A stretch of 64,000 bases of DNA. It comes from an uncultured Erysipelotrichaceae bacterium. Its GTDB lineage: Bacteria; Bacillota_I; Bacilli_A; RF39; UBA660. The stretch covers positions 1,376 through 65,375 of the forward strand of contig CADCFX010000007.1 in the NCBI GenBank assembly GCA_902800945.1, given 5' to 3'. The translations under genes and the position numbers were made by a program. Shown in pieces: positions 7,754-34,784 of the stretch (positions within the stretch are counted from its first letter, which is position 1; each line of letters starts with the position of its first letter). The notes beneath the pieces are model-generated. The model was not told the origin of the DNA. It searched no databases and was given only the letters and a program-made list of their open reading frames with translations.

Positions 7754-7795
7754 TTTATGATATAATAAGTATGAAAGTAGGGAGGAGGTAAAAAT

Positions 7796-8690: not shown

Positions 8691-8703
8691 AAGGATGATT
8701 GGT

Positions 8704-10353
8704 ATGACATATAAAGAATTAGCAGATTTAATTTTTCCTAATATTACAAAAACTGTAGAGGATTACGAAAAAGAATATCCTGAAAGAGATTTACCAGAGG
8801 GAGCAAGAGTAACTAGGTATGCACCTTCTCCAACGGGATTTATGCATATTGGGAATTTCTATTCTACAGTAGTTGATTATGTAATAGCGAAACATAGTAA
8901 TGGGGTATTCTATTTGCGTAATGAGGATACAGATGGCGCTAGAGAAATAGAAGGGGCTATAGAGTATATTAGACATGTAATAGAGCATTATAAGCTCTAT
9001 CCCGATGAATATGAGTATAAAGATACTAAAGAGACAAAAGGTAATTATGGTCCATATATACAAAGTGAAAGAAAGGATATTTATCATGCATTCATTAAGC
9101 ATTTAATTAGTGAAGGCAAAGCATATCCTTGTTTCTTAACACAAGAAGAGATGGATTCGATTAGGGAAAGTCAAACTAAAGATAAAAGAAGAATAGGGAT
9201 ATATGGGAGATATGCTAAGTATCGTAATTTAAGCCCTGATGAAGCTGCTGAAAGAATAAAAAATGGGGAGAATTATGTAATTAGATTAAAATCACAAGGA
9301 GATTTTAATAAGAAGTTTAAGTTTGATGATTTGGCTTTTGGAACTATGGAATTTCCAGAAAATGATATAGATGTTGTAATAATGAAGTCTTCAAATCTAT
9401 TACCAACTTATCATTTTGCACATTTAGTAGATGATCATTTGATGCATACTACTCATGTTGTAAGAGGACAAGAATGGATTTCTTCTGTTCCTACGCATTA
9501 TGAATTGTTTAAAACCTTTGGTTTTAAAATGCCTAAGTATGTTCATACTCCGTTAATATTAAAAAAAGATGGCGACAAGATAAGAAAAATATCTAAGAGA
9601 TTAGATCCTGAGGCTAGAATGACTTATTACGAAGAAAAGGGTTATCCTATATTTTCAGTTATTGAGGCGATAATGACTATAGCTAATTCTAACTATGAAG
9701 CATGGCGAGAAAATAACCCTGATAAAGAGTTTACTGAGTTTGATTTTTCACCTAAGAAGATGAGTGCTTCTGGGGCATTGTTTGATTTAGATAAATTGGA
9801 TAATATATCTAAGAATTATATATCTAAATTAAAAGCTACTGAAGTTTTTGATATGTTGGATGAATGGTCAAAAGAATATGACAAAGATTTTAATGAGTTA
9901 ATAAATAAATATAAAGATTATACTATTGAAATACTTAATATAGAGAGAGAACAAAAGAAACCTAGAAAGGATTATGCATCTTTCTCTGAGATTAAAGGTC
10001 AGATATGGTATATGTTTGATGAATTATATAAGACTCCAGATTATGAGTTTGCTGAAGGATTAGATAAAGAAGAAATTAATAAAGTTTTGAGTATATATTT
10101 TAAAGAGTATTATGATGAAAAAGATGATAAAGATACTTGGTTTAATAAAATGAAGGAAATGACTGATGAACTTGGTTATTGTTCTGATATGAAAGAGTAT
10201 AAAGCTAATCCGGATAAGTATAAAGGAAGTATAGCTGATATATCTAATATTATTAGAGTAGGTGTAACTAGTAAAAGACAAACTCCGGATTTATATGTAA
10301 TATTAAAACTACTAGGTAAAGATAGAATTAATAATAGAATAGAAAGCATCTAA
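8704..10353 (+). CDS. gltX: Glutamyl-tRNA synthetase
   Basis: HIGH-type motif PSPTGFMHIGN and KMSKS-type motif KISKR. Start moved from 8641 to ATG 8704 (RBS GAAAGGA) because 8641-8690 is the T-box and terminator. Confidence 0.9.
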   Translation: MTYKELADLIFPNITKTVEDYEKEYPERDLPEGARVTRYAPSPTGFMHIGNFYSTVVDYVIAKHSNGVFYLRNEDTDGAREIEGAIEYIRHVIEHYKLYPDEYEYKDTKETKGNYGPYIQSERKDIYHAFIKHLISEGKAYPCFLTQEEMDSIRESQTKDKRRIGIYGRYAKYRNLSPDEAAERIKNGENYVIRLKSQGDFNKKFKFDDLAFGTMEFPENDIDVVIMKSSNLLPTYHFAHLVDDHLMHTTHVVRGQEWISSVPTHYELFKTFGFKMPKYVHTPLILKKDGDKIRKISKRLDPEARMTYYEEKGYPIFSVIEAIMTIANSNYEAWRENNPDKEFTEFDFSPKKMSASGALFDLDKLDNISKNYISKLKATEVFDMLDEWSKEYDKDFNELINKYKDYTIEILNIEREQKKPRKDYASFSEIKGQIWYMFDELYKTPDYEFAEGLDKEEINKVLSIYFKEYYDEKDDKDTWFNKMKEMTDELGYCSDMKEYKANPDKYKGSIADISNIIRVGVTSKRQTPDLYVILKLLGKDRINNRIESI

Positions 10354-10374
10354 TTTTGTATAGATGTTTTTTTC
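10344..10374 (+). terminator. Rho-independent terminator after gltX
   Basis: 9-bp stem (10344-10352 with 10361-10369, including one G-U pair), an 8-nt loop, and a T-run to 10373. Overlaps the gltX stop codon. Confidence 0.7.
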
Positions 10375-10464
10375 TGCGATTAAGTTCTCGATATTTTTAT
10401 ATTTTTGTATCTATATTTTAATAAGTATGCTATACTTATAATAGTATGGAGTACTATAGGAAAG

Positions 10465-13400
10465 ATGGAAAATAAGATGAAGAAGACTAGATTTATTTAT
10501 TTTTTATTTCTTATTGTTGTTATAAGTAGTATTTTTTATGGTGTAAATGTAGTCAGAAGAAATTTAAATGCAGAATCAGGACAGTTTTCTTTTGACGGTT
10601 ATGCTTTAGTGTTGAATAGTAAGGCGACTAAATCTGAAGTTATTACGTTTAATAGTGGAGATGTTTATAATTATAAAAAATATGATGATATGGTTAGTTT
10701 TGTTTCAAATGATAAGAAGGTTAAAGTTGATAATTCTACTGTAATGCATTTTCAAGATAAATCTTTATTGGTATTAAAAAATACGGTTGGTATTAATTTG
10801 AATTCTATCGATATGCCTATTATTTTTTATTATAATATTTTTAAGAATTCTACTATTAGTTATAATGATAAAAAGTATAGTATTAAAACTATTGATAATG
10901 GAGATATAACTTTTGAACCATTATTACTTCGAATAACTGATAATAAATTCTTGATAGCAGGAGAAAGTGTTAGGGCTACTTTAGCTAGTGATGAAGTGGT
11001 TGATTTTGGTTCTTATGTTTATATAGAATATGTAGATGGTTCAATTATAAAACTATATAATGATGCTAATTATTATCAAACTATTACAGAAAATGCTAAC
11101 GTGGTTGTTGGAGATATTACAATTAATCTAAAAGAAGAAAGCATTAGTAAATCTGGAGTAAAATATATTTCTTTATCTAATCTTGTTATCAATCATGATG
11201 GAAATATAGACGTATTAGTGGAAGAGAAAAAAGAGGCTGAAAAAGCTATTATTGAAGAACCTAATAGTAAAGAAATACTAAGTAAAGATGATGAGCAAAT
11301 AGATGATAGTAAAAGTAGTACTACAACTACTAATAATGTAAGCGGGAATGGATCTGAAAATACTGAAAATAATCCTGGCGGGGTTATAAATAGTGATGGT
11401 AGTATAACTGATAATAGTGTAGAGGAAGTAGAAAGTGAAGATAAGGAATCTAAAGAACCTGTTTATAAGGTTACTAAATTGTCTATCGATGCTTTATCTC
11501 TTGATGCTTCTTTTGAAATTCAAGACGATGATTCATTAATCTCTGGACCTACACAGATTAGGATTATAGAGAATGCTACTTCTAAGGTTGTATATGAATC
11601 TTCGATAGAAGCGGGAGATTTATTTGGTTATGTTTCTTATCCGGATTTAAAACCAGACACGGAATATACTTTAACGGCCAAAGCTCCTTATAAAGTTGAT
11701 GATGTAGAGTATGATAAGACTTTTATATCTAAAATATTTAGAACAGAATCATTGGGGGTTTATTTTGAAAAGGCGTATGCAACTGCGACTTCTATAGTTA
11801 TAGATGTAAATCGCGAAAGTTATTCAAATGTTTCGATGGCAACTTTAGGTATATTTGATAGCGATGGTAAACTTATTGATTATCAAGGCGTTGATTTTTC
11901 TGTAAATAATACTAACAGGATTCAATTTGCTAATTTAGATAGTAATACGACTTATATGGTTAAACTTTATGATATTCTATCATCGGGAATTATTGTAAAT
12001 GATGGTTTTTCTCAGAAGGAGAATATTTCAACTTTAAAGGTTGCACCAACAGTTGGAGATTTGGAATATGCTGTAAGTAAAAGCCGTTCTGCCTTTGAAC
12101 TTAGTGTTAAAGGGGTAAAAGATAGCGATTATGGTATTAAAGGCTATAGATATGAAGTCTATGATGTAAGGCAAAATATTACTAATGAAAAGCCAATAGT
12201 TGTGGTTGAAAAAGATACTTTGGTTGCGGCAGATGTTGCTGTAGATGATATAAATATACATCATGGAGTAGCTTATACTTATAAACTAATTGTTTTATTT
12301 AATGATAATGAAAAAGATATTGAATATTCATTTGATTTGGGAACAACAATGCAAATTGATGGAGTTACATTCCCTAGTGTTCGTTGGGAAGAATCGTCTG
12401 TTACTTGGGAGCAAATAAATGGAACTATAATTGTTGATGATCCTTCTAATACAATAATGAGTGATACATATAGAATAGTTTATAAAAACTCTGTAGATGC
12501 TTATGAAACTCGTTCTATAACAGCTTCTACGGATAGAAATGCGATTCCGATAAATGTAAATTATCTAAGAGCTAATGAAACGTATACATTTGATGTTTAT
12601 GCCAGTATAAATCTACAAGACGGTAATCCAACTGCTACGGAAACATATATTGGAAGTGTTAAGGTACAAACAAAATCTCCTAAGTCTTTAACAGCAGTAT
12701 TTGGTGATAATGGTTCTTATGATGATGTTTTCTCTTTGAGTTTCTCTTTGGCTAATGATGAGGAAGATGCAAGCTTTGAAGCTAGTACGTTATCTTCACT
12801 TACATTTACTCTATATCAAGGATCAACTACTGAAGGTAGAGTTGAAACCTATAAGAAGACTATAGATACTGACGATGATGAGTATACAAGCGTATTAAAA
12901 TCAATGTTTTATGATGCTTCTGCAGTTATAGATGCTAAATTCTTTAATAAGGAAAACTCAGATTTTAAACAAAAAACTTATACTTTAGTAATAGATGGAT
13001 CTTACGATTATACAGGATATGATTCTAATATAATACCTATTACAAATAATGTGTTCCATTTCCAAGTTAATAATTATATTCCTAGTTTACCTGATCCTAA
13101 TGAGGCGCAGATGGTTGTAAATAGTATTTATAATAGAAATGCTGATAGTTTTAATATAGAGTATAATGATGAGTTGCTTCCTAATACTCTTGTTGGTTAT
13201 AATGTTATAGCAGATTATGATAATTCTAGTAAAACAGGGAAATATGTTGTTTATCATGTATGGCGTTATAATCCTGCGACTGATGAATATGAAATGGTTC
13301 CGGGGTTAGATAGAAGTATTAATTTTGATGCTTCTGGTAATTTAAAACCTTCTGTTTATATGGTTGGAGACGGAACAGATGCTAATACGTTGGATAGTGA

Positions 13401-15795
13401 TATGCTAAGAAGAGGTAATGATTATTATTTCTCATATGAAGCTTATTTGGATATGGATAAAGATGGTACTGCTGAAACGGTTTATCCTACATCTATTGAT
13501 TCGACGGTGGTCTTGAAAAGCGAAACGCTTAGTCCTTTAAAACAAGTTAGTAGTTTTGTTTTATATCCATCAGTAAGTGATGCTTCAACTTTTACTTGGA
13601 AGTATAAGTATAAAGATATTGATCATGCAATATCTGATGGTAAGTTGTACGGGTTTAAAAATGCGGATGTTAATCCTTTGTCATCAGCTGATATTTCGTA
13701 TAATGAAGATTTTCAGGCAGTAACCTTTACAGGTCTTAGTTCTTCTAATATATTGACTATTCGTAAAAAAGAACAACTACAGAAGAGTGCTGAGCCTGGA
13801 TATGTGGCTTTGACTAGTCAGTATTTCTATGGCTTTAGAAATAATTTGGGGCTTCGTTATAGCTTGAGTAATGATGTTAATAAGGTGATTATATCAGTTG
13901 ATAATTATTCTGAAAATGCGACAGTGGTAGCGAGAATAGCTGCTGCTGATGTAATTATAACTCCGACTGACCCTGTAAAATTACAACAATTGGGTGTGAA
14001 AAAGTTTGAGAAACAAGATATATCATCTGGAAGCATAGTTTTAAACTATATGGATATTTCAGAATATATTTCTACTCCGGTAAAAATTGAGGTTAAGGCG
14101 TATTATGATAGTGGAAATACTGGTTTTGATGTTCCTAGTGAGTATAAAGCTATTCAAAAGGGTACTTATGATACATATGGTAATTATTTTAATGTTTCTT
14201 CATCTTCTAAGTTGGTACAATCTAGTTCTATATATGGTAATTTAATGACTGTTAATACTGATTTTACTAATGAATCGATGCAAATTAGAACTATGAAGGG
14301 TGTAAATCATACAGTTAGTTTTAAGATGGATCAAACTGGTGTTGTTTATGATAACAATAATGTTTTGTTAAAGGAGATAAGAACGGAAAATTTAGCTTCA
14401 TCTAATAACGTTATGCAATTTGATTATATTATTCCTGGTATTTCTTTACATAAAAATAATAAAATTGATGTCACTTCATTTTTAACCAGCGTAAAGCTTA
14501 ATGCTCATCTATATAGTACTGAATATAGTAATATAAGAGAAAATCTAGTATATATTGATTTGTATGAGACTGATAGTAATGGTATAAATTCTACATTCTT
14601 AACGACTTTGACAAAGAATATTTCTGCGTTTGATTCACCAATTGAGATTAATAATTTACAGCCTAAGACGAATTATTATGTTAATTTTTATGTTTATGTT
14701 TTCAATTCTGATACTGGTGCTTATGAAAAAATATACTTGTATGATGTTAATCAAAAAGTTATGGGAGTAAATTATCATTTCTATACCTTATCTGAGGTTG
14801 GAGTGACTAATATTCAAGCTGAGTTAGTTGCTACATCTTATCGTAATAAAGACCTTGTTATTTCATTTAATTTAGATACTTTGGTTGGTTATGATTCGAT
14901 TGATTATAAGTTATATAAGTATCAAGGTGGTTCTTTTGTTCCTACTGATATTACGATACCTAGTAGTAGGGCTTTCTTTAGAACGATGAATATTAATGTT
15001 GATGCTTCTCCATCTCCTAATAATGAGATTGAGTATGAAGGAACTTATAGGATTGTAATTACTCCTATGGGTAGTTATACAGAGAATGGTGAAGTTGTTA
15101 ATATTGAATTGGGTTCTTATAGTAGAGAGTTTACTATAGGAAGTTATGAAGAGCCGTATATTGGAATTTCTTCTGGTAAGACGGATTCTTCAATATTCTT
15201 TAGAGTTAGTGTAAATGATCCTAGTAAAGTTATTGTTAATGATAGTTATACTATTACATTATTAGATAGCAATGATCAAGTTGTAGCTTCAACTGAAAAT
15301 GTTTCTATAGGAAACACCTATAAGAGATTTACTTTTGATGTTTCACAGTATAATTTGGTTTATGGTGAAGTTTATAAGTTTGTGGTTACAGCTAGTGCTG
15401 ATTATACTAATAAAGGAAGAAATTTTACTCCTCTTACTAAGAGCCGTTCAGTTAGATATGGCGGAAATATTTATTTAGGAACTGTAATGTTACAGAATAT
15501 GACTGATGATGATGGTACTCATCTGAACTTAGTTTTTGCTGATTCATTTAATTTAAATGATATAACTTCAGTTACATATAATATTTCTTCAATGGAGACC
15601 GGATTCTTCTTATCTAGGAATGAGACTTTTTCTGCAAGGTATGAACCGACTACGGATTTATATTATTATTCATTGTTACTTAATGATGATGATTATCTTC
15701 CTGGAGCAGTATATACTTTATCATTAAATTTCTATCGTGATGGAGATTTGATAGAAAGTGCAGAATTCGATTACTATGAAGGGGGGAATGGATAA
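10465..15795 (+). CDS. Giant N-terminally anchored surface protein with an array of Fn3/Ig-like beta-sandwich repeats
   Basis: Uninterrupted ORF of 1777 aa from ATG 10465 (the ORF track starts at TTG 10405). It has one N-terminal TM helix (FIYFLFLIVVISSIFYGV) and a Ser/Thr/Asn-rich linker. At least 9 repeats end in a Y-x-h-x-h motif, for example TEYTLTAKA, TTYMVKLYD, VAYTYKLIV, ETYTFDVYA, TNYYVNFYV, GTYRIVITP, EVYKFVVTA and AVYTLSLNF. No LPXTG motif and no C-terminal anchor. Confidence 0.8.
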   Translation: MENKMKKTRFIYFLFLIVVISSIFYGVNVVRRNLNAESGQFSFDGYALVLNSKATKSEVITFNSGDVYNYKKYDDMVSFVSNDKKVKVDNSTVMHFQDKSLLVLKNTVGINLNSIDMPIIFYYNIFKNSTISYNDKKYSIKTIDNGDITFEPLLLRITDNKFLIAGESVRATLASDEVVDFGSYVYIEYVDGSIIKLYNDANYYQTITENANVVVGDITINLKEESISKSGVKYISLSNLVINHDGNIDVLVEEKKEAEKAIIEEPNSKEILSKDDEQIDDSKSSTTTTNNVSGNGSENTENNPGGVINSDGSITDNSVEEVESEDKESKEPVYKVTKLSIDALSLDASFEIQDDDSLISGPTQIRIIENATSKVVYESSIEAGDLFGYVSYPDLKPDTEYTLTAKAPYKVDDVEYDKTFISKIFRTESLGVYFEKAYATATSIVIDVNRESYSNVSMATLGIFDSDGKLIDYQGVDFSVNNTNRIQFANLDSNTTYMVKLYDILSSGIIVNDGFSQKENISTLKVAPTVGDLEYAVSKSRSAFELSVKGVKDSDYGIKGYRYEVYDVRQNITNEKPIVVVEKDTLVAADVAVDDINIHHGVAYTYKLIVLFNDNEKDIEYSFDLGTTMQIDGVTFPSVRWEESSVTWEQINGTIIVDDPSNTIMSDTYRIVYKNSVDAYETRSITASTDRNAIPINVNYLRANETYTFDVYASINLQDGNPTATETYIGSVKVQTKSPKSLTAVFGDNGSYDDVFSLSFSLANDEEDASFEASTLSSLTFTLYQGSTTEGRVETYKKTIDTDDDEYTSVLKSMFYDASAVIDAKFFNKENSDFKQKTYTLVIDGSYDYTGYDSNIIPITNNVFHFQVNNYIPSLPDPNEAQMVVNSIYNRNADSFNIEYNDELLPNTLVGYNVIADYDNSSKTGKYVVYHVWRYNPATDEYEMVPGLDRSINFDASGNLKPSVYMVGDGTDANTLDSDMLRRGNDYYFSYEAYLDMDKDGTAETVYPTSIDSTVVLKSETLSPLKQVSSFVLYPSVSDASTFTWKYKYKDIDHAISDGKLYGFKNADVNPLSSADISYNEDFQAVTFTGLSSSNILTIRKKEQLQKSAEPGYVALTSQYFYGFRNNLGLRYSLSNDVNKVIISVDNYSENATVVARIAAADVIITPTDPVKLQQLGVKKFEKQDISSGSIVLNYMDISEYISTPVKIEVKAYYDSGNTGFDVPSEYKAIQKGTYDTYGNYFNVSSSSKLVQSSSIYGNLMTVNTDFTNESMQIRTMKGVNHTVSFKMDQTGVVYDNNNVLLKEIRTENLASSNNVMQFDYIIPGISLHKNNKIDVTSFLTSVKLNAHLYSTEYSNIRENLVYIDLYETDSNGINSTFLTTLTKNISAFDSPIEINNLQPKTNYYVNFYVYVFNSDTGAYEKIYLYDVNQKVMGVNYHFYTLSEVGVTNIQAELVATSYRNKDLVISFNLDTLVGYDSIDYKLYKYQGGSFVPTDITIPSSRAFFRTMNINVDASPSPNNEIEYEGTYRIVITPMGSYTENGEVVNIELGSYSREFTIGSYEEPYIGISSGKTDSSIFFRVSVNDPSKVIVNDSYTITLLDSNDQVVASTENVSIGNTYKRFTFDVSQYNLVYGEVYKFVVTASADYTNKGRNFTPLTKSRSVRYGGNIYLGTVMLQNMTDDDGTHLNLVFADSFNLNDITSVTYNISSMETGFFLSRNETFSARYEPTTDLYYYSLLLNDDDYLPGAVYTLSLNFYRDGDLIESAEFDYYEGGNG
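11460..15780 (+). repeat. Protein-level tandem array of roughly 100-aa beta-sandwich (Fn3-like) modules inside the 1777-aa CDS
   Basis: A tyrosine-corner-like motif (T/S-x-Y-x-h-x-h) recurs about every 90-130 residues. The repeats are diverged at DNA level. Boundaries are approximate. Confidence 0.55.
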
Positions 15796-17315: not shown

Positions 17316-17338
17316 TAGTTTTGTTAATTATTAGATAA

Positions 17339-17614
<276 letters not shown>

Positions 17615-17617
17615 TTT

Positions 17618-18376
17618 ATGAATGAAATATTTATAATAATTGGAGTAGTAGTAATACTGCTTTTGGTATTTACTTTATTACTATTTTATATAAGTAAAAG
17701 GGTAAATTTGTTAATAAAAAAGATTTTTGTTGATAGATTACAAGAGTTTGATTTCTTGATAGAAGATAAGGAAAAAAAGATTAATGAGTTAAATGGTGAG
17801 ATATCAAATAGAAAAGAACAAATAGAAGAATTAAAGTCTAAAACTGTAAAAAGAACGGTAGACATAGAAGATAATAATAAAGAAGTTGTATTACCGGTTT
17901 TTGCAGATTTAGAAGATGATAACGTTAAAACGATTTATAGAAAAATTAAATATGGATTTAATTATGATGTGGAAACTGCTATAAAGAAGTTGGTTAAGAG
18001 TAATCATGAAAATAATAGTAAACAGTTGTATAATGAATATAGAAAGATTAGAAGTTATTTTTCATTTAATGTTATTTATAAAATATCTACATTTCAAAGT
18101 AATGAACAGTTTGTGATAGTAAATGAATTGTTAAGTGATATTGAGAAGGAAAGAGTAAAAAATATATTAGTTAAGAAAAACTTTAATATTAATAAATTTG
18201 TTGAAAAGGTAGAGGAACTGATAATAAAGAGTAATCCAAAGATTAAAGTTTTGGTGGGGGATAAAAGTAAGTCATATAATGATATTGATGAGTATGTAGA
18301 AACTGTATATTCTGATAAAATAACAGAAGGATTTAAGATTGAATATAAGGGAGTAGTATTTGATTATAGTATATAG
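17618..18376 (+). CDS. Subunit b-like stalk protein (N-terminal TM helix, coiled coil, extra C-terminal domain)
   Basis: 252 aa. TM helix IFIIIGVVVILLLVFTLLLFYI is followed by the charged coiled coil DKEKKINELNGEISNRKEQIEELKSK. It occupies the atpF position between the c-like and alpha-like genes. The assignment rests on architecture and position only. Confidence 0.5.
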   Translation: MNEIFIIIGVVVILLLVFTLLLFYISKRVNLLIKKIFVDRLQEFDFLIEDKEKKINELNGEISNRKEQIEELKSKTVKRTVDIEDNNKEVVLPVFADLEDDNVKTIYRKIKYGFNYDVETAIKKLVKSNHENNSKQLYNEYRKIRSYFSFNVIYKISTFQSNEQFVIVNELLSDIEKERVKNILVKKNFNINKFVEKVEELIIKSNPKIKVLVGDKSKSYNDIDEYVETVYSDKITEGFKIEYKGVVFDYSI

Positions 18377-18471
18377 AATATGGAAATAAAAAGGGAGAAT
18401 TAGGATTATTTATGATAATGAAACAGCACTTATCCATTGTGTTTTATTGTAAATAATACTAGGAAGTTGTT

Positions 18472-19878: not shown

Positions 19879-19880
19879 CT

Positions 19881-22307
<2,427 letters not shown>

Positions 22308-22309
22308 TA

Positions 22310-23577: not shown

Positions 23578-23604
23578 TAGATAATTAAAAAGGATGTTTT
23601 TAAC

Positions 23605-26600: not shown

Positions 26601-29600
26601 TTATAAATCAAGAGAAAGAAAAGAAGTTAATCTGGGAAATGCTTCTATTTTACCTGGAACTTATAATAATAATGGAACAATAAATGTTACTGGTTCTTAT
26701 TATGATAGAAGGGCAAGAGTAAGTGAACCGTTGATTTTAGAGGGGAATAGAGCTTATACATTTGATTTTGCTGATTCTGATAATGACTATTCTGCTTATA
26801 TTTATTTTACTGATCTTAGTAATAAGTATAAATCAGCATATGGTTGGTTTGAATCTGGTAGAACTGTTTATGTACCTAGTGGATCTAAAACTTGGTTGGT
26901 ATTTAGAAATTATAGTGGTAATGCCAATATTGATCCGAGTAAGGTAAATCTAAAGATTACTGAGTATGTAGATTTGCCAAGTAAATCTTATGAGACGTTT
27001 AGTTATGATTTTGTAACTAATACACGGGTTAATATTAAGGATTTAAAAGATGAAATAAGTAATAATACATATTATATTCAAGTAAAAGATGAAAACGGAG
27101 AGAAATTATATAGTAATGAGTATGTTGAATTAATAAATACAGATGTTATTAAAGATGCAATAAAATCTGTCGATTTGGAAGAGAATAAAAAATATACTAT
27201 TTGTTTAGCTATTTCTATTAGAGATAGGGAATATGTTCTTGATAGTTTTGACATATCTACTGATAATGAGGTTAAGGGGATTGCAAATACTAATGATTGG
27301 GTATATATGCAACCGAATGGTAATTATATAGTATTAAATGATTTGGATTTTTATGAATTTACAGCTCAAACACTAGGTTGGGGATATAAATATTTCTATG
27401 GAACAATAGATTTTCAAGGATATAGTGCTAATGTTTATTCGCTTTCAGATAGGAATAATTATACGAGATTAGGAAGAATAGAAAAAAGTGGCATTTTAAA
27501 GAATATGGTTTTAAATGTTCATTTGAACAATACAATAGTTAATACGAGTATAAGAGGATTTGTTTCTTCTAATTATGGTACGATAGAGAATGTAGAAATA
27601 AATGTTTATGATGAAAGAGAAACTAAATTTAATGATACTTATTTTAATACTTTAGTTGATGTTAATCATGTATCTGGAGTGATTCAAAACTTTGTTATGA
27701 AGCTAAAAACGAAAGTTAATTTATATTCAGAGGTGGGATTATTAACTAGGTATAATTATGGAACTGTAAGAAATGGTTATGTGTATGGAGAAAATGCAAT
27801 TATTTCTAATGAAAATAGTGGGGCGTCTGCTAGAACTATTGGGTTAATACAAAGATATGGTGGTGTTAAGTCACTTGTTGATCATATCTATGTTATCAAC
27901 AACTATGAGTTCCCAAGCGATTTTGCTTATGATATTACGGGGTTAATTGCTTATGAAACATATGGTACATTACGTAATTCTTATACTGTTGGTAATGCTA
28001 ATAATATTAATCAGGCAGTAGGTCCTGTGGTAGGCTATGTAAGAGCAACTGCTAATTATAGTAATATTCATTATTTAAGTGATTATATCTATACAACCAA
28101 TAATCAAAATAAGATTACGGCTTTAAATCTTAATGATGTGTCTTTTCAAAAAAGTGTACTTGGAGATGGATTTAATGTTGATGAAATGGTTAAGCTAGGG
28201 TATTATCCTCAAGTTAGATATACTTATAATAAGATGCCTAAGCAAGAATTTAATGAGTTACCATATTATTCTGAAACAAGTGTTGTAGATATTATTACGA
28301 TGGAAGTTGTAGAACAAACAAATTCAACTGCAATGGTAGATGTTGTTGTTGATAATCCAAATGGAGATCAAATAGATAATGTAGCTATTTCAGATGTTAG
28401 GACTAGAGTAGTATCGCAAAATTTTGAAGATGGGAAAACCTATTTAAAATTAGAAGTATATGATCCAGATATTTATGTATCTAAATATGCTATTAGAAAT
28501 ATAACCTGTAGAAGTTATAATGGTTTGCTTTCATCTAAGGCATATGCTGCTGGAGAAAAGTATCTATATGTAGATTTCTATCAAGAGATTAATTCGGTTG
28601 AAGATTGGATGCAGATTAATAGAAATCTAAATCAGAATTTTGCAATTATGAAGGATTTGAATTTCATAGAGTATACAGGATATACATTGGGTAATTTTTC
28701 TGGAAAAATAGATGGAAATAATCATGTTTTAAGAAATATTAGTCTTTATGGAAATGTATCAGGATTGTTTAATCAAATGAATGGAACTTTACAGAATATT
28801 AGTTTTGAAAATATAACTAAGAGTTCTGATTCTACTTATAGCGGTTTGATAGGTTATTCAAACCAATATGCTAATTTTAATAATGTTCATGTTAAGAATA
28901 TTACGATAATTGTTCCACCAACTAGGACTGCAGACACCTTGTATGTTGGGGGACTTGTTGGATATTTATATTATTCTAAGGTTACGAATTCAACTATAAC
29001 TGATGTAACTATTACCTCTACTCCTGAGATTACGGATGTTAATGCGGGAGGTATGGCCGGTTATAGTGTGGCTGGTGGATATAGTAATGTTTTGGTACAG
29101 AATGCTAATATTAGTATTAAGAATGCTAAAAGTGTTAGTGGTGTAGGAGGAATTGTAGGTAGAGATACTAGTAGTATTTCTAGTATTGCTAATGCTTATT
29201 CTACTGGAACAATAGTTTCAAATGGGTATCGTACTGGTGGTATAATTGGAGCGACAAGTGGATATGTTGAGAACAGTTATTCAACTGTAAATATTCAGAG
29301 TGATATAGATAGTGTTGGTGGAATAGCAGGCTATTCAGGTACTCCGGCCGATATAATGAACAATTTATATCTTGGAAATATGTATTCTAAGATAGAAGGT
29401 GCTGTATTTGGACGTATAATTAGTAATAATTATTTGGAAGATGAAAGTAATAACTATGCTTATGATAATTCTTTAATAAATGGTATGAAAACTACTGAAT
29501 TTGATGAGGAATATGAAAATAATATATATTATGGTGTACTAACTCCGATTAATAAGGGGGAATCATTTATTAGTTATGAAGAGTTATTAGATGTTGATAC

Positions 29601-32600
29601 TTATACTTCTGGTGATAAGTTACGATTGGGAGATTCTTTTGATTATTCTGAGGTTAGCCAAGGTACACTTCCAAAACTATATTATTTGGATTCGACAGAG
29701 TTATTACCTAATCAGTTAGATACTAAAATTAAGCAACAGATGTTTAGAGTTACTAACTTAGTTATTGATAAGCATGTTGATCATGCTAACTTGGTGTTGT
29801 ATTTAGATAATCCAGATGAATATTTAATAACGGATATAGTATTAGATGATACTAATGTTCAAATTAGTAATATTACTAATCATGAGGGAACAACTATTAT
29901 TAATTTCACAGCAACTCCTAAGAAATATTATGATTCTTATATGATTAGTGAAATTAAGTATCGTGTAGATATTAATGCTAGCGAAGAAAGGGAATTTAAG
30001 AATATTAGAATTCCGATGACTTTCTATAAAAACTTATCTACTTTTGATGATTGGCAAGCTGTAAGTACAAGTGATGCTGAAAACTATGTTTTAGTTAATG
30101 ATATTGATTTTACGGGATTAGACTTTAAAAAAGGTGTAGTATTTAATCGTTTAGAGACACCATCTAATGATGAAAAATACACTTTAAGGGGATTTAATTA
30201 TTCTAATAATACTAGTGGTAATAATAAAGCAATTATTAATAAAATAGTTACTTCTTTAAGAAATATTAATTTTGAAGATATTGAAATAAGAAATACACAA
30301 GGATCAAGTAATAATTATATAAATTTAATTAATTATAACTATGGTTCTATTGATAATGTTAGTTTTAAGGATATTGAAATATATGCGCCTAGCAAGAGTA
30401 GAGTAGCTTTAATTGGACAGGGGTTAACTAATCATATAAATAATATTTCGCTAGATAATATTAAAATAACTGGTAAATCGTATGTAGCAGGTTTATTGGC
30501 TTATTATGACAATGGTGTTAATAATCATATTTCTAATATAGAGGGTAAAAATTTAACTATTTATGCTTCTAATGGATATGCTGGTGGAATATTTTCAACA
30601 TTTAGTACGGCTCATGGAGTAGATGCTAAAACTAAAACAAATATTGAGGGTAGTCCAGACTTAGATGATTCGGTAAACTTGGTTAGAAATATAAAGGTAA
30701 GTGATTCAACTATAACTATGCCTTCTGGTAATTATGCTGGTGGAATAGGAGCGTATGCTGGAGCTAATGATTCAGTGGTTGATAATGTAACAGTAAATGG
30801 AAATAAATATGTTGGTGGAGCGTTTGGATATGCTTATGAGTCTTATATGTATAATATTACTGTTAAGAACTCCAACGTATCAGGAATTGATAGCTATATT
30901 GGCGGTTTGGCAGGTCAAAGTAGATATTTGTATGATTGTTTGGTTGATAATACTAATGTTAAAGGTACTAGCACCTCAACAGATGGAGTAGCGGGATTTG
31001 TTGGATATATTAATGGATATGCACTTAGAAGAAGTGTTGTTCAAAATAGCACAGTAGTTAACAGCGGTAATAATACCGGTTGTTTAGTTGGAAGTATGTC
31101 GGGTGGTACGTTACATACTATGTCTTGTCATAATAGTACAATTACAGGACAATCAAAAACTGGAGGTATGGCTGGTAATGTTAATACTGGTACTATATCA
31201 ACTTCAAAAGTTACTAATAGTGTTATTCATTCAGCTGGTAATTATGCTGGTGGAGTGGCCGGATATTTTTATAATATTAATGATCAAGCTACGTATCGTG
31301 AAGGTGTGTTTAGAAATCTATTGGTAGCAGGGGTAGATATTTCTAGTAGGAGTTATGCCGGAGGTATTCTTGGAGGAAAGAATACCGAAATATATAAAAA
31401 GAATAATGATTATGAATTGTATTTTGAAGGAGTTGTTTCTACTGAAGATAATATTACGGCTGGAGTAGGAGCCGGAGATGATTCTAATAAGGAAATTCTT
31501 AATCTAGGACATGCTGGTTTCTATAATAGATCAGTTATAAATGGGGAAGAAATATCTAATAATATAGCTCCTTTAGAAAATGATAATCTTATTAAACATA
31601 TTAATTCGGGATTTGTTAATGAAACTACTGGTGAGCCTGGAGATAATCTTAATTATCCTAATGCGGGATATACTGATATGATAAAATTAGAACAGGGTAA
31701 AAACTATTATTTTAGAGCGGAAAATGTTAACAATAATAGTGGTGATATATTTAGAGTTAGATTATATGATGCTAATAGAAAATATATAAGTAATGCTGCT
31801 TGGAATTCAAATACTTGGTATTACTTTAGTCACTATACTAATTTTGGTAATGTTGATGATTATTCTTTTACTGTTAATCATGATTGTTATGTTAGATTTG
31901 TATTCTTTTATACAGCTTCAGCTTCTTTATATGAGATAAAGACAGCGTATAACATGGTACCAGAAAGTAAGCTTTTAAATTCTTCTGATATTAGAGATAA
32001 ACTAACATGGGTTAGATATGCACCAGGTGGAGCAGATTTATATCAAAAAACGCAATTATGGTTTGATTCTGATTATTGGGATACTACTCCTTTAAATGGT
32101 GGTGTTGAAAACTTAGAAGTTCCTGATTTATCTGGTCATGGTAAAAAGGGAATTGCTAATGTAAGTATGATGCATAAAGATAAAGGTTTCTTCTTCGATG
32201 GGGTGGATGATAATATTCAAATACCAGATTATACGCCAAGTAGTAACATAACTGTTTCAACAACTTTTACATCTTATGCAAGTAGAAGTTGGCAATTACT
32301 ATTTAATTATGGAACGGCATCAACGAATTATTTTGGGGTATTTATAAGTGGAAAGGCTTTATATGTAGTTATTAATGGATCTACTTATAATAGCGGTTAT
32401 TATGTACCTTTGTATAAAGAAGTTAATATGACTGCTACTTATGATTCTAATAAATATTTGAAAATATATGCAGATGGTAATTTGGTATATACTAATAATA
32501 ATGTTAATAAAACCATCGGTTCTTCAGTTGATGCTAAGACTTATGTGGGGCATGATATTCATTATAGTTCAACTTCTTATAAATTTTTGGGATATATCAA

Positions 32601-34245
32601 AGATTTAGCTGTATTTAATAGGGCGTTATCAGAAGAAGAGGTATTAGCAAATTATAGATCATCTGGTATTACTAATAATAGTGGATTAACTATTAAGCAG
32701 AAGTATACTGATTCTTCTTATGGAAATCCTGGTTATTATCCGATTCATAAATGGTCTACGCCTTCTTTCCAAGTATATAATCAAGCAAATGTTGAGCTTC
32801 CTACAGAAAGATCTACAGTTGGTTATTTAGCTGCCTCTCATGGTAGTAGTTATAGTCCTTTATATAATGGAGCACTAGAAGGTAATTATCACATATATTC
32901 TTCTGGAATAAATACTATTAATTTAGAATTAGATAAAATATCATCAGATTTGAGATTATCGTATAAAATTGGAGATAAAGAGGAGAATGATTTGCCTGTT
33001 ACGAAGAGAGTTTATTCTTTTGGCTATGATTATAATAGTGATATAAAAATAGTATTGGAAAATACAAGTGAAACAAAAGAAATCGTTTTGACTAAAGAGG
33101 ATTTGGCTAAATCAATAACTTTAAAGGATGGTAAGTATTATCATATTGAGAATTCTAAGTTGTATGAGAATAATAAAAAGATAGTTGATAATATTGTTCA
33201 TGTTTATAATGACTTGGCTTTAGTTAGTGATGGTAGTATTTATAATCTTAAAACAAATGAGTATCAAGAAGCCCTTGGAGATATTGGTTTATTAGATAGA
33301 GAGATTCCTCTATATCATACTAATATAAGTGATAAAATAGTTGATTCTTATTATAATTATAGTGTTTTAACTGATTTAGATGGTAATATAAAATATAGAG
33401 ATGGGCAGATAATATATAAAGATAAAAATGTATATTTATATAGTTCTAATAGTGGTATTAAAAATGACTCTTTGATAGTTAATAACTACAATAATAGTGA
33501 ATATCAAATAGTTTTAGGTGATAATTTACAAGTATATTCATATAAAACGAAGTTAAATTCTGATAATTATTTCATGAATAGTAATATATCAGAGATTAGT
33601 GGAGATTTTGATAATGATGATCCAATTATAATGATTAAGTATGATAATGGAGGAGTTATTGCTTTTGATTATCATAATGGTGATAAGCTATTTGAATATG
33701 GTAGTAAGCCAAAAATATCTTTGACTAAGTATTTTGGCTTAGCTGTTACTGATAATAATACGGCGAAGAATAATAAGTCTTATGAATCTAGTAATGATTT
33801 AATTAAAACTTTAGATAGTGTTGATAATCAAGAGGTAATCGGTTTGTTGAATAGAAATAAAACGGATAAAGTTATCAATACGGAAAAGGTAGAGGATACT
33901 AGTGAGGATATTCCTTCAGATGTTGATGAGCAATTAGATGCAGTTATTGAAAGCAATGATGTTAAGAATGACTATATTATCAAGTATGATAAGGATACCA
34001 ATTCTTATGATGTATATAATATTAATGATGTTTTAAATGTTGATGCAGATAATGTAGTATCTGTAGATGAGCAGATTGTATCTAATAATTATTTGTATAA
34101 TTATTTCCGTAGTAATAATAAGAGTGATGAAGTAATAAAAAATAACAGATTATTAATATATGCAAGCATTATTATAGTTATTGTATTAAATCTAGTTTTC
34201 TTTGCTATAAAAGGAAGAATGAAGGAGGAAAAGAATGAAAAATAA
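23605..34245 (+). CDS. Giant (3546 aa) surface protein with TM helices at both termini
   Basis: Uninterrupted 10.6-kb ORF with the RBS AAAGGA. N-terminal TM helix VLPVFIVAIFIFVIFLFNYLF. The C-terminal TM helix LLIYASIIIVIVLNLVFFAI has a charged tail (KGRMKEEKNEK) and no LPXTG. The interior holds Fn3-like modules (TEYKIVGQY, TSYYIEIDS, TNYVLKFIA, KKYTICLAI), jelly-roll-like modules, three GLUG-type modules and a LamG-like domain. Confidence 0.85.
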   Translation: MKKKIAKLIKKLKMNKFKDSKLVKVLPVFIVAIFIFVIFLFNYLFNTYSFVMVVEEKGYFLSSDSAPESLRSNNYDKAEDKLKVAEIEQNEYIYKTPLNHYVDNSRSSTINMSYPLFINDGLAIINYNDNTNLVSTDLKRLTGLNNVVFSYGSVYDPVTYVSLDGDKYILLNYENGIYLNLYDLDIKSEAQEVTIPINSFIYFSKDKINYYERGENTFVKNSIDVDFNTTLRFYYASNNEEYIYGYEDFLKVIGISFKTIEEIPEKQIITPEEVIEEVDEEDVTPVPPAIMEEVQKPGFTYVKPSVAVQRFTPNVYSMSSNLIIKDPSGVIIKPPTFTLVSGGKTFARRAFYASGNILISGLYASTEYKIVGQYTYLDEDLKTKKIVTFYSDTLTTLGLEELEPIEIEFENGEIYSNKIELAKMILTSSLDSEVLRGVKNFALTIGDTNYFFSKSDLNKLINGKEINNISTPESLESDKEFDFEITFYDGKNNKLEARNNKGHTRTSRRPPAVVLKVVENEVDYVGISVNLKNDDNIKIGNYHYVVTNSSGVTVLSDTISDERFKLYNLDPNQVFNINVYGDIDLNDGKGERKDYVLGSMEFTSLPITSLGFLNFDFESNELTKDSVTLNYRINSSKTDDRLLKLLKQLHIKLFREDNNELVTEYSLSSQEITRIKNYEELTLLFKNLNSNTSYYIEIDSVVQQGETTYDLDCLHSLKPFTTRKKPAEVVIANSFVSNNMIDLDVKINDPDNSVLTKEVRLELRDLNDTLVDARIIKTNTDFERITYNNLKVNTNYVLKFIADEYNETNSNSTFVSKYVLKSISKYTEESISGKIELTSSLRVANGENLVDMYSETKWIQTINTYTIPKTIDSEGDMHIYSKNGSSSYMYDLSDYHGEIVTATFKIKAINPLSAGHRLFFENYLGNTTSLNYGIELTNISTDKWTTYTYTFRVGSYKSGNNFVNNTSTYYGKYRTDFIGFWFTNGSKFTAEYEVRDFMIYKSRERKEVNLGNASILPGTYNNNGTINVTGSYYDRRARVSEPLILEGNRAYTFDFADSDNDYSAYIYFTDLSNKYKSAYGWFESGRTVYVPSGSKTWLVFRNYSGNANIDPSKVNLKITEYVDLPSKSYETFSYDFVTNTRVNIKDLKDEISNNTYYIQVKDENGEKLYSNEYVELINTDVIKDAIKSVDLEENKKYTICLAISIRDREYVLDSFDISTDNEVKGIANTNDWVYMQPNGNYIVLNDLDFYEFTAQTLGWGYKYFYGTIDFQGYSANVYSLSDRNNYTRLGRIEKSGILKNMVLNVHLNNTIVNTSIRGFVSSNYGTIENVEINVYDERETKFNDTYFNTLVDVNHVSGVIQNFVMKLKTKVNLYSEVGLLTRYNYGTVRNGYVYGENAIISNENSGASARTIGLIQRYGGVKSLVDHIYVINNYEFPSDFAYDITGLIAYETYGTLRNSYTVGNANNINQAVGPVVGYVRATANYSNIHYLSDYIYTTNNQNKITALNLNDVSFQKSVLGDGFNVDEMVKLGYYPQVRYTYNKMPKQEFNELPYYSETSVVDIITMEVVEQTNSTAMVDVVVDNPNGDQIDNVAISDVRTRVVSQNFEDGKTYLKLEVYDPDIYVSKYAIRNITCRSYNGLLSSKAYAAGEKYLYVDFYQEINSVEDWMQINRNLNQNFAIMKDLNFIEYTGYTLGNFSGKIDGNNHVLRNISLYGNVSGLFNQMNGTLQNISFENITKSSDSTYSGLIGYSNQYANFNNVHVKNITIIVPPTRTADTLYVGGLVGYLYYSKVTNSTITDVTITSTPEITDVNAGGMAGYSVAGGYSNVLVQNANISIKNAKSVSGVGGIVGRDTSSISSIANAYSTGTIVSNGYRTGGIIGATSGYVENSYSTVNIQSDIDSVGGIAGYSGTPADIMNNLYLGNMYSKIEGAVFGRIISNNYLEDESNNYAYDNSLINGMKTTEFDEEYENNIYYGVLTPINKGESFISYEELLDVDTYTSGDKLRLGDSFDYSEVSQGTLPKLYYLDSTELLPNQLDTKIKQQMFRVTNLVIDKHVDHANLVLYLDNPDEYLITDIVLDDTNVQISNITNHEGTTIINFTATPKKYYDSYMISEIKYRVDINASEEREFKNIRIPMTFYKNLSTFDDWQAVSTSDAENYVLVNDIDFTGLDFKKGVVFNRLETPSNDEKYTLRGFNYSNNTSGNNKAIINKIVTSLRNINFEDIEIRNTQGSSNNYINLINYNYGSIDNVSFKDIEIYAPSKSRVALIGQGLTNHINNISLDNIKITGKSYVAGLLAYYDNGVNNHISNIEGKNLTIYASNGYAGGIFSTFSTAHGVDAKTKTNIEGSPDLDDSVNLVRNIKVSDSTITMPSGNYAGGIGAYAGANDSVVDNVTVNGNKYVGGAFGYAYESYMYNITVKNSNVSGIDSYIGGLAGQSRYLYDCLVDNTNVKGTSTSTDGVAGFVGYINGYALRRSVVQNSTVVNSGNNTGCLVGSMSGGTLHTMSCHNSTITGQSKTGGMAGNVNTGTISTSKVTNSVIHSAGNYAGGVAGYFYNINDQATYREGVFRNLLVAGVDISSRSYAGGILGGKNTEIYKKNNDYELYFEGVVSTEDNITAGVGAGDDSNKEILNLGHAGFYNRSVINGEEISNNIAPLENDNLIKHINSGFVNETTGEPGDNLNYPNAGYTDMIKLEQGKNYYFRAENVNNNSGDIFRVRLYDANRKYISNAAWNSNTWYYFSHYTNFGNVDDYSFTVNHDCYVRFVFFYTASASLYEIKTAYNMVPESKLLNSSDIRDKLTWVRYAPGGADLYQKTQLWFDSDYWDTTPLNGGVENLEVPDLSGHGKKGIANVSMMHKDKGFFFDGVDDNIQIPDYTPSSNITVSTTFTSYASRSWQLLFNYGTASTNYFGVFISGKALYVVINGSTYNSGYYVPLYKEVNMTATYDSNKYLKIYADGNLVYTNNNVNKTIGSSVDAKTYVGHDIHYSSTSYKFLGYIKDLAVFNRALSEEEVLANYRSSGITNNSGLTIKQKYTDSSYGNPGYYPIHKWSTPSFQVYNQANVELPTERSTVGYLAASHGSSYSPLYNGALEGNYHIYSSGINTINLELDKISSDLRLSYKIGDKEENDLPVTKRVYSFGYDYNSDIKIVLENTSETKEIVLTKEDLAKSITLKDGKYYHIENSKLYENNKKIVDNIVHVYNDLALVSDGSIYNLKTNEYQEALGDIGLLDREIPLYHTNISDKIVDSYYNYSVLTDLDGNIKYRDGQIIYKDKNVYLYSSNSGIKNDSLIVNNYNNSEYQIVLGDNLQVYSYKTKLNSDNYFMNSNISEISGDFDNDDPIIMIKYDNGGVIAFDYHNGDKLFEYGSKPKISLTKYFGLAVTDNNTAKNNKSYESSNDLIKTLDSVDNQEVIGLLNRNKTDKVINTEKVEDTSEDIPSDVDEQLDAVIESNDVKNDYIIKYDKDTNSYDVYNINDVLNVDADNVVSVDEQIVSNNYLYNYFRSNNKSDEVIKNNRLLIYASIIIVIVLNLVFFAIKGRMKEEKNEK
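27280..31540 (+). repeat. Three GLUG-motif (putative beta-helix) modules inside the giant CDS
   Basis: Each module opens with a D/E-D-W ... N-Y/F-x-L/I-x-x-D-L/I-D/N-F header, at nt 27280, 28579 and 30034. This is followed by iterated h-G-G-h-h-G repeats, such as YVGGLVGYL, NAGGMAGYS, VSGVGGIVG, YRTGGIIGA, SVGGIAGYS, YAGGIFSTF, YAGGIGAYA, YVGGAFGYA, YIGGLAGQS, KTGGMAGNV, YAGGVAGYF and YAGGILGGK. Confidence 0.6.
32119..32670 (+). other. LamG / concanavalin-A-like lectin domain (Laminin_G_3-like) inside the giant CDS
   Basis: VPDLSGHGKKG...FFFDGVDDNIQIP...ITVSTTF...WQLLFNYG...LYVVINGS...MTATYDS.KYLKIYADGNLV...YVGHD...FLGYIKDLAVFNRALSEEEVLANY matches the usual Laminin_G_3 pattern. Confidence 0.65.
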
Positions 34246-34729
34246 AAACGTGTTGATAGTTGGTATGGTTGCTCTAATCGTTTTTGTATTAGGTTGTTTA
34301 TTGTTATTTAATAAAAATAGCAATAAAACAAAATTCGATTTGGATTTAGTTCAAAAAGAGTTTATGAAAGAATTCAAAGAATATGATGTTAGAGAATTTG
34401 ACCAATATGATATATCAATGTATTTTGGATTAGACTTTAATGAAATTCCTTCTTCCTTGTTCATCTCAGATTTTTCTGAAGATCCTGATGAGCCTAAGCC
34501 ATTTGCACCAAAAGTATTAATTATAGTAATTAATACTCAAGATGCTGAAGACTATTATGATAGTTTATTAGGTTTTGTAGATTTAAACAAAAATAATTTA
34601 GAGGATAAGAAGTTAGCTAAAAAATATGAAAAAGCCATATTAAAAAAAGGTAAAAACTATGTTTATTTATTATTAGGTGATAATCCTAAAGATATGGAAA
34701 AAAAGTTGTTAGAGTTAGCTAAGAAATAG
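34235..34729 (+). CDS. Small anchored protein, DUF4358-like
   Basis: 164 aa. Overlaps the giant gene by 11 nt and has a strong RBS AAGGAGGA. An N-terminal TM or lipoprotein-like helix is followed by a pattern reminiscent of DUF4358 (ISMYFGLD...KVLIIVINTQDAED...KGKNYVYLLLG). The family call is tentative. Confidence 0.6.
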   Translation: MKNKNVLIVGMVALIVFVLGCLLLFNKNSNKTKFDLDLVQKEFMKEFKEYDVREFDQYDISMYFGLDFNEIPSSLFISDFSEDPDEPKPFAPKVLIIVINTQDAEDYYDSLLGFVDLNKNNLEDKKLAKKYEKAILKKGKNYVYLLLGDNPKDMEKKLLELAKK

Positions 34730-34734
34730 ATGAT

Positions 34735-34770
34735 AAAACTGTCAACTAAAAAAGGTTGACAGTTTTATAT
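34735..34770 (+). terminator. Rho-independent terminator closing the 10.4-34.7 kb block
   Basis: 12-bp stem aaaactgtcaac (34735-34746) with gttgacagtttt (34755-34766), and an 8-nt loop. Confidence 0.75.
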
Positions 34771-34784
34771 TAATCTAATATAAT
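34756..34784 (+). promoter_or_regulatory. Sigma-A type promoter for rpsP
   Basis: TTGACA (34756-34761), a 17-nt spacer, then TATAAT (34779-34784). The -35 box lies in the descending arm of the upstream terminator. Confidence 0.7.

Follow-up and report, generated by a model that had tools for sequence, protein, structure and literature searches.

What is a set of F-type ATPase genes doing in the middle of an operon for giant surface proteins? The question is posed by a stretch of DNA of 64,000 nucleotides (the window) from contig CADCFX010000007.1 of an uncultured Erysipelotrichaceae bacterium (assembly GCA_902800945.1). Here genes resembling those for the c, b, alpha, gamma, beta and epsilon subunits of an F1Fo ATP synthase, followed by one for a polytopic membrane protein, lie between genes for membrane-anchored proteins, with g01 and g02 upstream and g10, g11 and g12 downstream (Table 1). 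Rotary ATPases are, to our knowledge, ion-coupled energy converters, with two mycoplasma F1-like systems as the sole documented exceptions. We consider it rather probable that this operon encodes an undescribed F-type rotary ATPase that acts as a mechanical motor and not as an ATP synthase or an ion pump. As to a direct mechanical coupling of the motor to the anchored proteins, which gene linkage and anatomy suggest, we put the chances at about even.

The catalytic part of the enzyme is readily recognized. A preliminary description of the window had called c-, alpha-, gamma- and beta-like subunits, and each of these calls was confirmed by Pfam (c, ATP-synt_C, 6e-10; alpha, PF00006, 1e-69; gamma, PF00231, 1e-24; beta, PF00006, 3.5e-68). 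The translated beta subunit carries the Walker motif and an EELSDED loop, and alpha carries the P-loop GDKKTGKT and the arginine finger SVSRLGG. As judged from these motifs, the alpha3beta3 head of F1 is catalytically complete, with its catalytic residues intact. In PDB alignments alpha matches canonical alpha from residue 3-4 onwards, which argues that the N-terminal delta-binding helix has been retained.

The C-terminal tail of alpha (window 19780-19878), some 30 residues long and acidic in the window copy, is hypervariable across species: it is of low complexity, acidic or proline-rich and often made of tandem repeats. The total length of alpha ranges from 434 to 1416 amino acids between species (examples are L006:3660-7910, L028:6678-9215 and L017:7060-9183, where L numbers denote the homologous loci described below).

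The 89-residue product that follows beta is tentatively assigned as epsilon. It has the size of the epsilon beta-sandwich alone, without the C-terminal helices, and it occupies the position of atpC in all 78 loci in which this could be judged. The earlier epsilon-like call fits in position and size, while the signals from sequence profiles are weak: two of 35 family members match PF02823, at 0.004, and alignment by hhalign with an epsilon sequence of PS3 gave an E value of 0.01 and a probability of 4%.

The protein between c and alpha had been described as b-like. That holds for its first part, a transmembrane (TM) segment and long helix, but the protein extends further, into a delta domain. 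An AlphaFold2 model (predicted local distance difference test score, pLDDT, 81.5) has a TM and long helix spanning residues 2-82, which a linker joins to a helical bundle and a small C-terminal beta part. The protein matches no Pfam family, and no significant match in the PDB came from sequence-profile searches with the epsilon-like, b-like or g10 families, so that the delta domain is identified by structure comparison only. Here the result is uniform. When the model was compared with the PDB using Foldseek, the top 36 matches were all ATP synthase delta/OSCP or mycobacterial b-delta subunits, with probabilities of up to 0.99. Since the list contains nothing else, the model indicates that the protein is a b-delta fusion and hence that the operon encodes a peripheral stalk. 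The predicted parts comprise a rotor (gamma, the epsilon-like protein and a c-ring) and a stator (alpha3beta3 and b-delta).

The membrane part is where the system departs from an ion-coupled enzyme. We aligned 64 homologues of c, 58 of them distinct. All or nearly all of them have the GxGxGxG motif of the first TM helix (TM1), a GRNPE cytoplasmic loop and a C-terminal NP; in canonical c a polar loop of the GRNPE type is the site at which F1 docks. Neither aspartate nor glutamate occurs in any column of the second TM helix (TM2) in the 58 distinct homologues. Polar residues are found there (S/T/A at residue 62 of the window protein, H/S/Q at 52), but none is conserved, the commonest residue accounting for 34-60%. 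We know of no rotary ATPase that translocates ions without a carboxylate on c.

An a subunit (PF00119) was not found in the operon. The polytopic protein encoded after epsilon, described previously as having five TM helices, is indeed present, with four or five helices according to our TM scan, and it gave no a-subunit match in profile searches of the PDB or Pfam. We considered it as a possible a subunit because its segment MILRLVNNY resembles the RLxxN motif; the candidate was rejected as the arginine is not conserved in an alignment of 70 homologues. The protein is always present and positionally conserved, with a mean column identity of 26% and one nearly invariant residue, Tyr123. It is a candidate for a membrane partner of the stator. 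Because c lacks the TM2 carboxylate and neither an a subunit nor a conserved arginine was found, the sequences indicate that Fo is unable to move ions by the known mechanism.

An ion or small-molecule pump with an unconventional site, formed by serine, threonine or histidine in TM2 of c together with the 4-5-TM protein, and with the surface proteins acting independently, could be built from the same components. The scattered polar residues in TM2 and the constant presence of a polytopic partner would suit such a pump. Against it, none of the polar positions of TM2 is conserved and the 4-5-TM protein, Tyr123 apart, is poorly conserved; a pump would also leave unexplained the conserved synteny described below. 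We regard it as very unlikely.

The far end of c is also well conserved. The C-terminus reads F(F/Y)NP (window 17597-17614), with Asn79 and Pro80 invariant in the 58 distinct homologues. In canonical c this end faces the outside of the cell and, by analogy, the invariant NP may be a docking site.

Another explanation of the locus would be an ordinary, if divergent, F1Fo ATP synthase or H+-ATPase, with atpB located elsewhere or decayed into the 4-5-TM gene and with the giants as chance neighbours. In its favour, the genes run in an order (c, b(delta), alpha, gamma, beta, epsilon) that parallels atpEF(H)AGDC, NCBI names the homologues 'F0F1 ATP synthase subunit beta', and the genomes of RF39-like organisms are small and reduced. 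We scored the window subunits against the NCBIfam equivalog models and their cut-offs. Beta falls 3 bits under the cut-off for atpD (459.8 against 462.85), a marginal result, and scores 412 against 570 for MSC_0618, 406 against 752 for N-ATPase and 385 against 850 for MMOB1670. The other subunits are far below: alpha reaches 395.4 for atpA (cut-off 484.45), 418.8 for PRK13343 (554), 367 for MMOB1660 (600), 298.6 for MSC_0619 (520) and 343 for N-ATPase (750); gamma never exceeds 55 bits, where no cut-off is lower than 194 (53.7 against 194, for instance, and 32 against 282 for N-ATPase); and c reaches 29-41 bits against cut-offs of 44-71 (at best 40.7 against 71).

The beta subunits of these loci also stand apart as a group. 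We searched 1.84 billion representatives exhaustively with HMMER. Family members scored 580-646 bits at 61-66% identity and, after a clear gap, the next full-length protein scored 363 bits at 41% identity. In a separate search of the PDB the best entry scored 378 bits. No other beta is more than 44% identical to the family. In a neighbour-joining (NJ) tree of 78 beta sequences, with alpha as the outgroup, 57 of 60 bootstraps recovered the family as monophyletic; its stem measured 0.24, and it was not nested among canonical or mitochondrial betas. A 784-residue protein, P0213, which equals the G1-ATPase beta subunit 9io5_A in length and score, falls outside the clade. The tree is crude and was drawn from a biased sample of the top 150, and we use it solely to say that on sequence comparison the family forms a distinct clade. 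That alpha and beta are not housekeeping AtpA and AtpD, as the earlier hypothesis implies, is borne out by the subthreshold NCBIfam scores and by this discrete beta clade.

Is the association with giant surface proteins a peculiarity of one contig? A scan of 185,579 species-representative genomes yielded 285 relatives, and the best 80 of these, with beta identities of 60-91%, were examined. The recurring order is giant, protein of about 500 residues, c, b-delta, alpha, gamma, beta, epsilon, TM protein, protein of about 250 residues, giant; a metagenome contig with a beta 77% identical to that of the window has the same eleven genes. This order recurs in loci L001-L082, and the ATPase cassette together with anchored proteins of a shared domain is found in most of the 80. 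For a quantitative view we mapped the window proteins onto the open reading frames (ORFs) of each locus, taking loci with enough flanking sequence as denominators. The ATPase genes are present almost throughout (alpha, 80/80; gamma, 78/79; epsilon, 78/78; c, 65/67), and the genes for anchored proteins in most loci (g10, 71/75; g02, 55/59; g01, 47/55; g11, 54/69). In several of the cases scored as absent, the corresponding place is occupied by a giant ORF that could not be aligned.

The loci span 22-59% GC. Their record titles range from metagenome-assembled genomes (MAGs) labelled 'Tenericutes', 'Bacilli' and 'Mycoplasma sp. CAG:956' to Lachnospiraceae, Oscillospiraceae and Peptococcaceae, and one host is a cultured organism, Chakrabartyella piscis BP5G, with a complete genome of 3.4 Mb. 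The interleaving of ATPase and giant genes to which the preliminary description drew attention is thus conserved in about 80 species-level genomes, the best of 285 relatives, from RF39-like Bacilli to Clostridia. Two MAGs contain two separate copies of the cluster (L058 and L079 in JAHABX01, 54-55% GC; L050 and L067 in JAWXVA01, 39% GC). Both L058 and L079 are flanked by giant and anchored-protein genes of their own, and L067 is on a short contig.

Two copies in one MAG are hard to reconcile with a housekeeping enzyme. An ordinary synthase is further disfavoured by giants that stay with the ATPase genes over such a range of base composition, including a Lachnospiraceae genome of 3.4 Mb. It is opposed too by the loss from every distinct c homologue of a carboxylate essential for ion transport, by the failure to find an a subunit or its arginine at the locus, by the low scores of alpha, gamma and c and by the isolation of the beta clade. 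In our judgement it is highly improbable.

The anchored proteins have more in common than their position. By hydrophobicity scan each of g01, g02, g10, g11 and g12 has an N-terminal anchor, and g11 has another at its C-terminus, in agreement with the earlier description of g02 and g10 as anchored and of g11 as doubly anchored. All five begin with a lysine-rich stretch and a single TM helix, from which we predict an N-in, C-out topology. In g01 the helix (ORF residues 31-49) is followed by a juxtamembrane beta-domain and a long beta-rich ectodomain. In g11 helices at 22-40 and 3510-3528 enclose an ectodomain of about 3450 residues, with a basic tail after the second helix, and both anchors are retained in the full-length homologues of L027, L039 and L089.

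Profile-profile comparison by hhalign of the first 260 residues of each family revealed a shared juxtamembrane ectodomain in g01, g02, g10 and g11, proteins of 257 to 3546 residues. The probabilities were 96% for g01-g02 (E value 1.5e-9), 93% for g01-g10, 92% for g10-g11 and 85% for g02-g10, with E values across the pairs of 1e-9 to 7e-6; reversed and unrelated controls gave 10% or less, and the aligned regions are located past the TM helix. The minimal carrier is g10, which is essentially the all-beta domain alone. Its AlphaFold2 model (pLDDT 84.5; predicted template modelling score 0.74) has the TM helix and 24 strands, and a Foldseek search of the PDB gave no match below an E value of 0.001 (best 0.027, template modelling score about 0.15).

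Beyond the shared domain the giants vary. The g11 protein contains Laminin_G_3 (1.3e-10) and a GLUG motif. Such distal modules are sporadic and differ between species, and the rest of the distal sequence carries no annotation; L089 has fn3 and an ALK/LTK glycine-rich domain, and L027 has GLUG. The modules fit exposed surface proteins of a binding type. We found no NCBIfam match for g01 or g11 and neither a Pfam nor an NCBIfam match for g02. The preliminary description of g01 as an Fn3 array could not be upheld: there is a single borderline fn3 match, at 25.3 bits against a cut-off of 25, and BLAST detects no internal repeats. We looked for arrays or repeats in the giants generally and abandoned the idea, as BLAST shows no self-similarity and only single borderline fn3 matches occur. 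Likewise, the likening of g12 to DUF4358 is unsupported, with no family match in Pfam or NCBIfam.

Three further observations concern this end of the operon. A small protein with an N-terminal TM segment also follows g11 in L089, a hint that g12 is conserved. In some other metagenome contigs carrying the exact g12 protein the 3' part of g11 is called as separate ORFs of 512 and 417 residues, or as one of 869 residues, in place of the single ORF of 3546 residues (L085:2-2974, L088:3-1727 and L086:2-2611); this could reflect a strain-level interruption, phase variation or an assembly error. The same organism is found in 18 contigs, and some of the sample names (STEW19, SHIW14) may point to rumen metagenomes.

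How might such a motor work? We propose that the enzyme would run solely as an ATPase, with which a short epsilon free of inhibitory C-terminal helices is consistent. ATP hydrolysis would make gamma, epsilon and the c-ring rotate relative to the stalk, and no ions would flow. The rotation, or the torque, could reach the anchored proteins by way of their TM helices, placed in or against the c-ring. There is a structural precedent in the eukaryotic V-ATPase, where the lumen of the c-ring holds the single-pass proteins ATP6AP1 and ATP6AP2. Alternatively or additionally, the shared domain might dock on the outward face of the ring at the invariant C-terminal NP. With an anchor at either end, g11 might be wound up or put under tension between the rotor and the stator. 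Candidate outputs would be the movement, tensioning or conformational cycling of a surface apparatus, serving adhesion dynamics, surface motility or ligand release. In its most specific form the proposal is a fourth repurposed F-type motor and the first outside the mycoplasmas, an ion-blind c-ring rotor with a stator that serves as a transmembrane rotary 'winch' and drives giants whose anchors or shared domains ride the ring. We offer this version tentatively, as possible but less than probable.

The same genetic linkage would be expected if the ATPase assembled, exported or extracted the giants during their biogenesis or turnover, by analogy with FliI/FliJ and the ATPases of type III secretion systems. 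Proteins of 1776 and 3546 residues with only signal-anchor TM segments would be demanding substrates, F1-type hexamers are related to type III export ATPases and our beta subunit matches FliI/SctN models at 1e-57 to 1e-60. The full rotary architecture that has been retained (c with its docking loop, gamma, epsilon and a b-delta stalk that keeps alpha3beta3 from turning) would, however, be superfluous in an unfoldase or an export ATPase. Nor does the operon encode any translocon-like component, the only polytopic protein being the small, poorly conserved 4-5-TM protein. An export motor appears unlikely to us, though less so than a synthase or a pump.

Several points weigh against a surface-coupled rotary motor. 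The coupling of motor to surface is drawn from synteny, and the synteny has exceptions. In a rearranged sub-clade (L062, L063, L064, L068, L071, L076-L078 and L080-L082) the order is c, b-delta, alpha, beta, epsilon, TM protein, gamma. Four of these loci (L062, L068, L071 and L082) keep g01, g02 and g10 and have no g11 downstream, whereas L076 and L081, and probably L077 and L080, have no anchored-protein genes within 8-10 kb of the cassette. In the whole set 15 of 69 loci have no detectable g11 downstream. From the sub-clade without anchored genes and the missing g11 we conclude that the partnership is not obligatorily in cis; the linkage of motor and giants is strong, not absolute. To these must be added the weak profile signals for epsilon, the stator role of the 4-5-TM protein, which is a guess, the crude NJ tree with its biased sample and the unreliable taxon labels of many MAGs.

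On the last point, MAGs labelled Alistipes, Muribaculaceae or Ignavibacteriales are among the loci. Three of these (L027, L039 and L064) have a low, Bacilli-like GC content of 26-32%, and L043 has 47% GC. These labels are probably binning or labelling errors and not occurrences outside the Bacillota.

The predicted operon is made up of twelve consecutive, tightly packed ORFs on the + strand (10465-34729), bounded by hairpins after gltX and before rpsP, in a window of about 28% GC with a strong positive GC skew. The compact layout reported in the preliminary description is accurate. The 1-nt TAATG overlaps at 15795 and 22804, the 17-nt overlap at 22038 and the 11-nt overlap at 34235 are all present, as are gaps of 2-3 nt in the ATPase block (c/b, alpha/gamma, gamma/beta and epsilon/TM protein). 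Longer spacers precede c (47-53 nt), alpha (95 nt) and g11 (27 nt), and no obvious hairpin was seen in any of the three. The view that the block has no internal terminator also stands: a scan of its + strand gave nothing convincing, with two weak 5-bp matches, at 31065 and 31247, being no more than shuffled sequences give. The hairpin after gltX was read directly from the sequence and is below the detection of the consensus scanner. The terminal hairpin overlaps a perfect sigma-70 consensus promoter (34756-34784; TTGACA, 17 nt, TATAAT) for rpsP, which also lies ahead of a KH-domain gene. Just upstream of gltX, genes for a DUF3137 protein and a LemA-family protein (6674-8341) are unrelated to the operon.

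Table 1. Features of the operon and its boundaries, in window coordinates (aa, amino acids)
Feature	Position	Strand	Remarks
gltX	8641-10353		Pfam tRNA-synt_1c
Weak terminator-like hairpin, upstream operon boundary	10346-10374	+	CATCTA...TAGATG and T-run; 6-bp stem after gltX
g01, giant surface protein	10465-15795	+	About 1776 aa; ORF opens at TTG 10405, likely start ATG 10465
g02, N-terminally anchored protein	15795-17315	+	506 aa
c-like proteolipid	17369-17614	+	81 aa; Pfam ATP-synt_C; ORF opens at GTG 17363, ATG at 17369
b-delta fusion, predicted peripheral stalk	17618-18376	+	AlphaFold2 and Foldseek
alpha-like subunit	18472-19878	+	468 aa; PF00006
gamma-like subunit, central shaft	19881-20693	+	270 aa; PF00231
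beta-like catalytic subunit	20696-22054	+	452 aa; PF00006
epsilon-like protein	22038-22307	+	89 aa; position, size, weak profile signals
Orphan 4-5-TM membrane protein	22310-22804	+	164 aa; TM scan
g10, N-terminally anchored protein	22804-23577	+	257 aa
g11, giant protein anchored at both ends	23605-34245	+	3546 aa
g12, small N-terminally anchored protein	34235-34729	+	164 aa; ORF and TM; membership tentative
14-bp hairpin, downstream operon boundary	34733-34768	+	Overlaps rpsP promoter
rpsP	34814-35089		Pfam

What would follow if a mechanical motor is indeed encoded here? Rotation of the c-ring would be a direct mechanical output across the membrane driven by ATP in place of the proton-motive force, which is what powers the flagellar, Exb/Tol and GldLM motors. 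Genes for such a rotor-stator machine of the F type, which would be free of ion coupling and is tied genetically to giant surface proteins, are carried by gut and rumen Bacillota in no fewer than 80 genomes at the species level. As the genes are annotated 'F0F1 ATP synthase subunit', metabolic reconstructions of RF39-like organisms may wrongly credit them with an ATP synthase. The cultured host with a complete genome, C. piscis BP5G, in which the cluster occupies about 646-667 kb of NZ_CP092441.1, makes the hypothesis directly testable. No description of such a system was found in a literature search that did not extend to subscription journals and in which several queries were poorly targeted.

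F-type motors have been taken over for surface machinery in mycoplasmas, where F1-like ATPases of Type 2 serve gliding and those of Type 3 the antibody-cleaving MIB-MIP system (PMC11864180, PMC12994834); both types have been described as mycoplasma-specific (PMC3369863, PMC12994834). The preliminary description stated that their clusters lack c, which agrees with the published accounts; they lack a peripheral stalk as well (PMC3369863, PMC12994834). The Type 3 system, F1-like X0 (MSC_0618/0619), resembles the window cluster in being a paralogue of F1 alpha, beta, gamma and epsilon, in sharing an operon with membrane and surface proteins and, on our reading, in having a function apart from ATP synthesis, that of energising an extracellular process (PMC12994834, PMC3369863). 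The differences are considerable. Type 3 has no c, b or delta and its alpha has no N-terminal helix, whereas the window cluster has c, b-delta and the helix. The membrane part of Type 3 consists of a 12-TM protein and an 87-kDa protein; a 12-TM protein is absent from the window cluster. The seven genes of Type 3 (12TM, small protein, gamma, epsilon, 87 kDa, alpha, beta), of which the small protein is cytoplasmic, are not arranged as in the window. Its partners are MIB and MIP where ours are giant anchored proteins, a comparison that did not include a search for MIB or MIP homologues. Unlike the Type 3 hosts, those of the window system are not mycoplasmas and use the standard genetic code.

The Type 2 enzyme, the G1-ATPase of Mycoplasma mobile (MMOB1660/1670), has the catalytic features of F1 (PMC11864180). 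It shares with our proposal an F1-like rotary ATPase that has been proposed to power the movement of giant surface proteins, in that case Gli123, Gli349 and Gli521, of 1000 to 4700 residues. The Gli giants are anchored by terminal TM segments, and the G1-ATPase genes are not known to lie next to the gli genes. In a comparison that was not rigorous, we detected no homology between the window giants and the Gli proteins. The G1-ATPase forms a cytoplasmic dimeric chain with GliD, GliE and PGK and has neither c-ring nor stalk, in contrast to the c and b-delta of the window. On its beta there is an N-terminal extension of about 300 residues (about 30 kDa), for which the 452-residue window beta has no counterpart. 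Compared with both mycoplasma systems, the window system would have kept rotor and stator while losing ion coupling, and its host range is much wider.

With canonical F1Fo the window system shares c, b, delta, alpha, gamma, beta and epsilon and the order in which they are encoded. Also common to both are the GxGxGxG and polar loop of c, the catalytic motifs, the N-terminal helix of alpha and the fold of delta. A b-delta fusion is also found in the ATP synthase of Mycobacterium smegmatis (7njk_d, among the Foldseek matches). The window differs in having no carboxylate on c, no gene for an a subunit or atpI in the operon and an epsilon without C-terminal helices. Like the window cluster, the N-ATPase (atpDCQRBEFAG), a type to which PMC3369863 also refers, is an F-type operon of its own, and some genomes have it in addition to that for the housekeeping enzyme. 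N-ATPases keep an a subunit and an ion-binding c and carry AtpQ and AtpR; their gene order, too, differs from ours. By its defining features the window system therefore belongs with none of canonical F1Fo, N-ATPase, Type 2 or Type 3, although it retains the b and delta stalk and the alpha N-terminal helix that characterize the canonical enzyme. It may resemble the ancestral state of the stalk-less, c-less Type 2 and Type 3 motors and is a possible intermediate in their origin.

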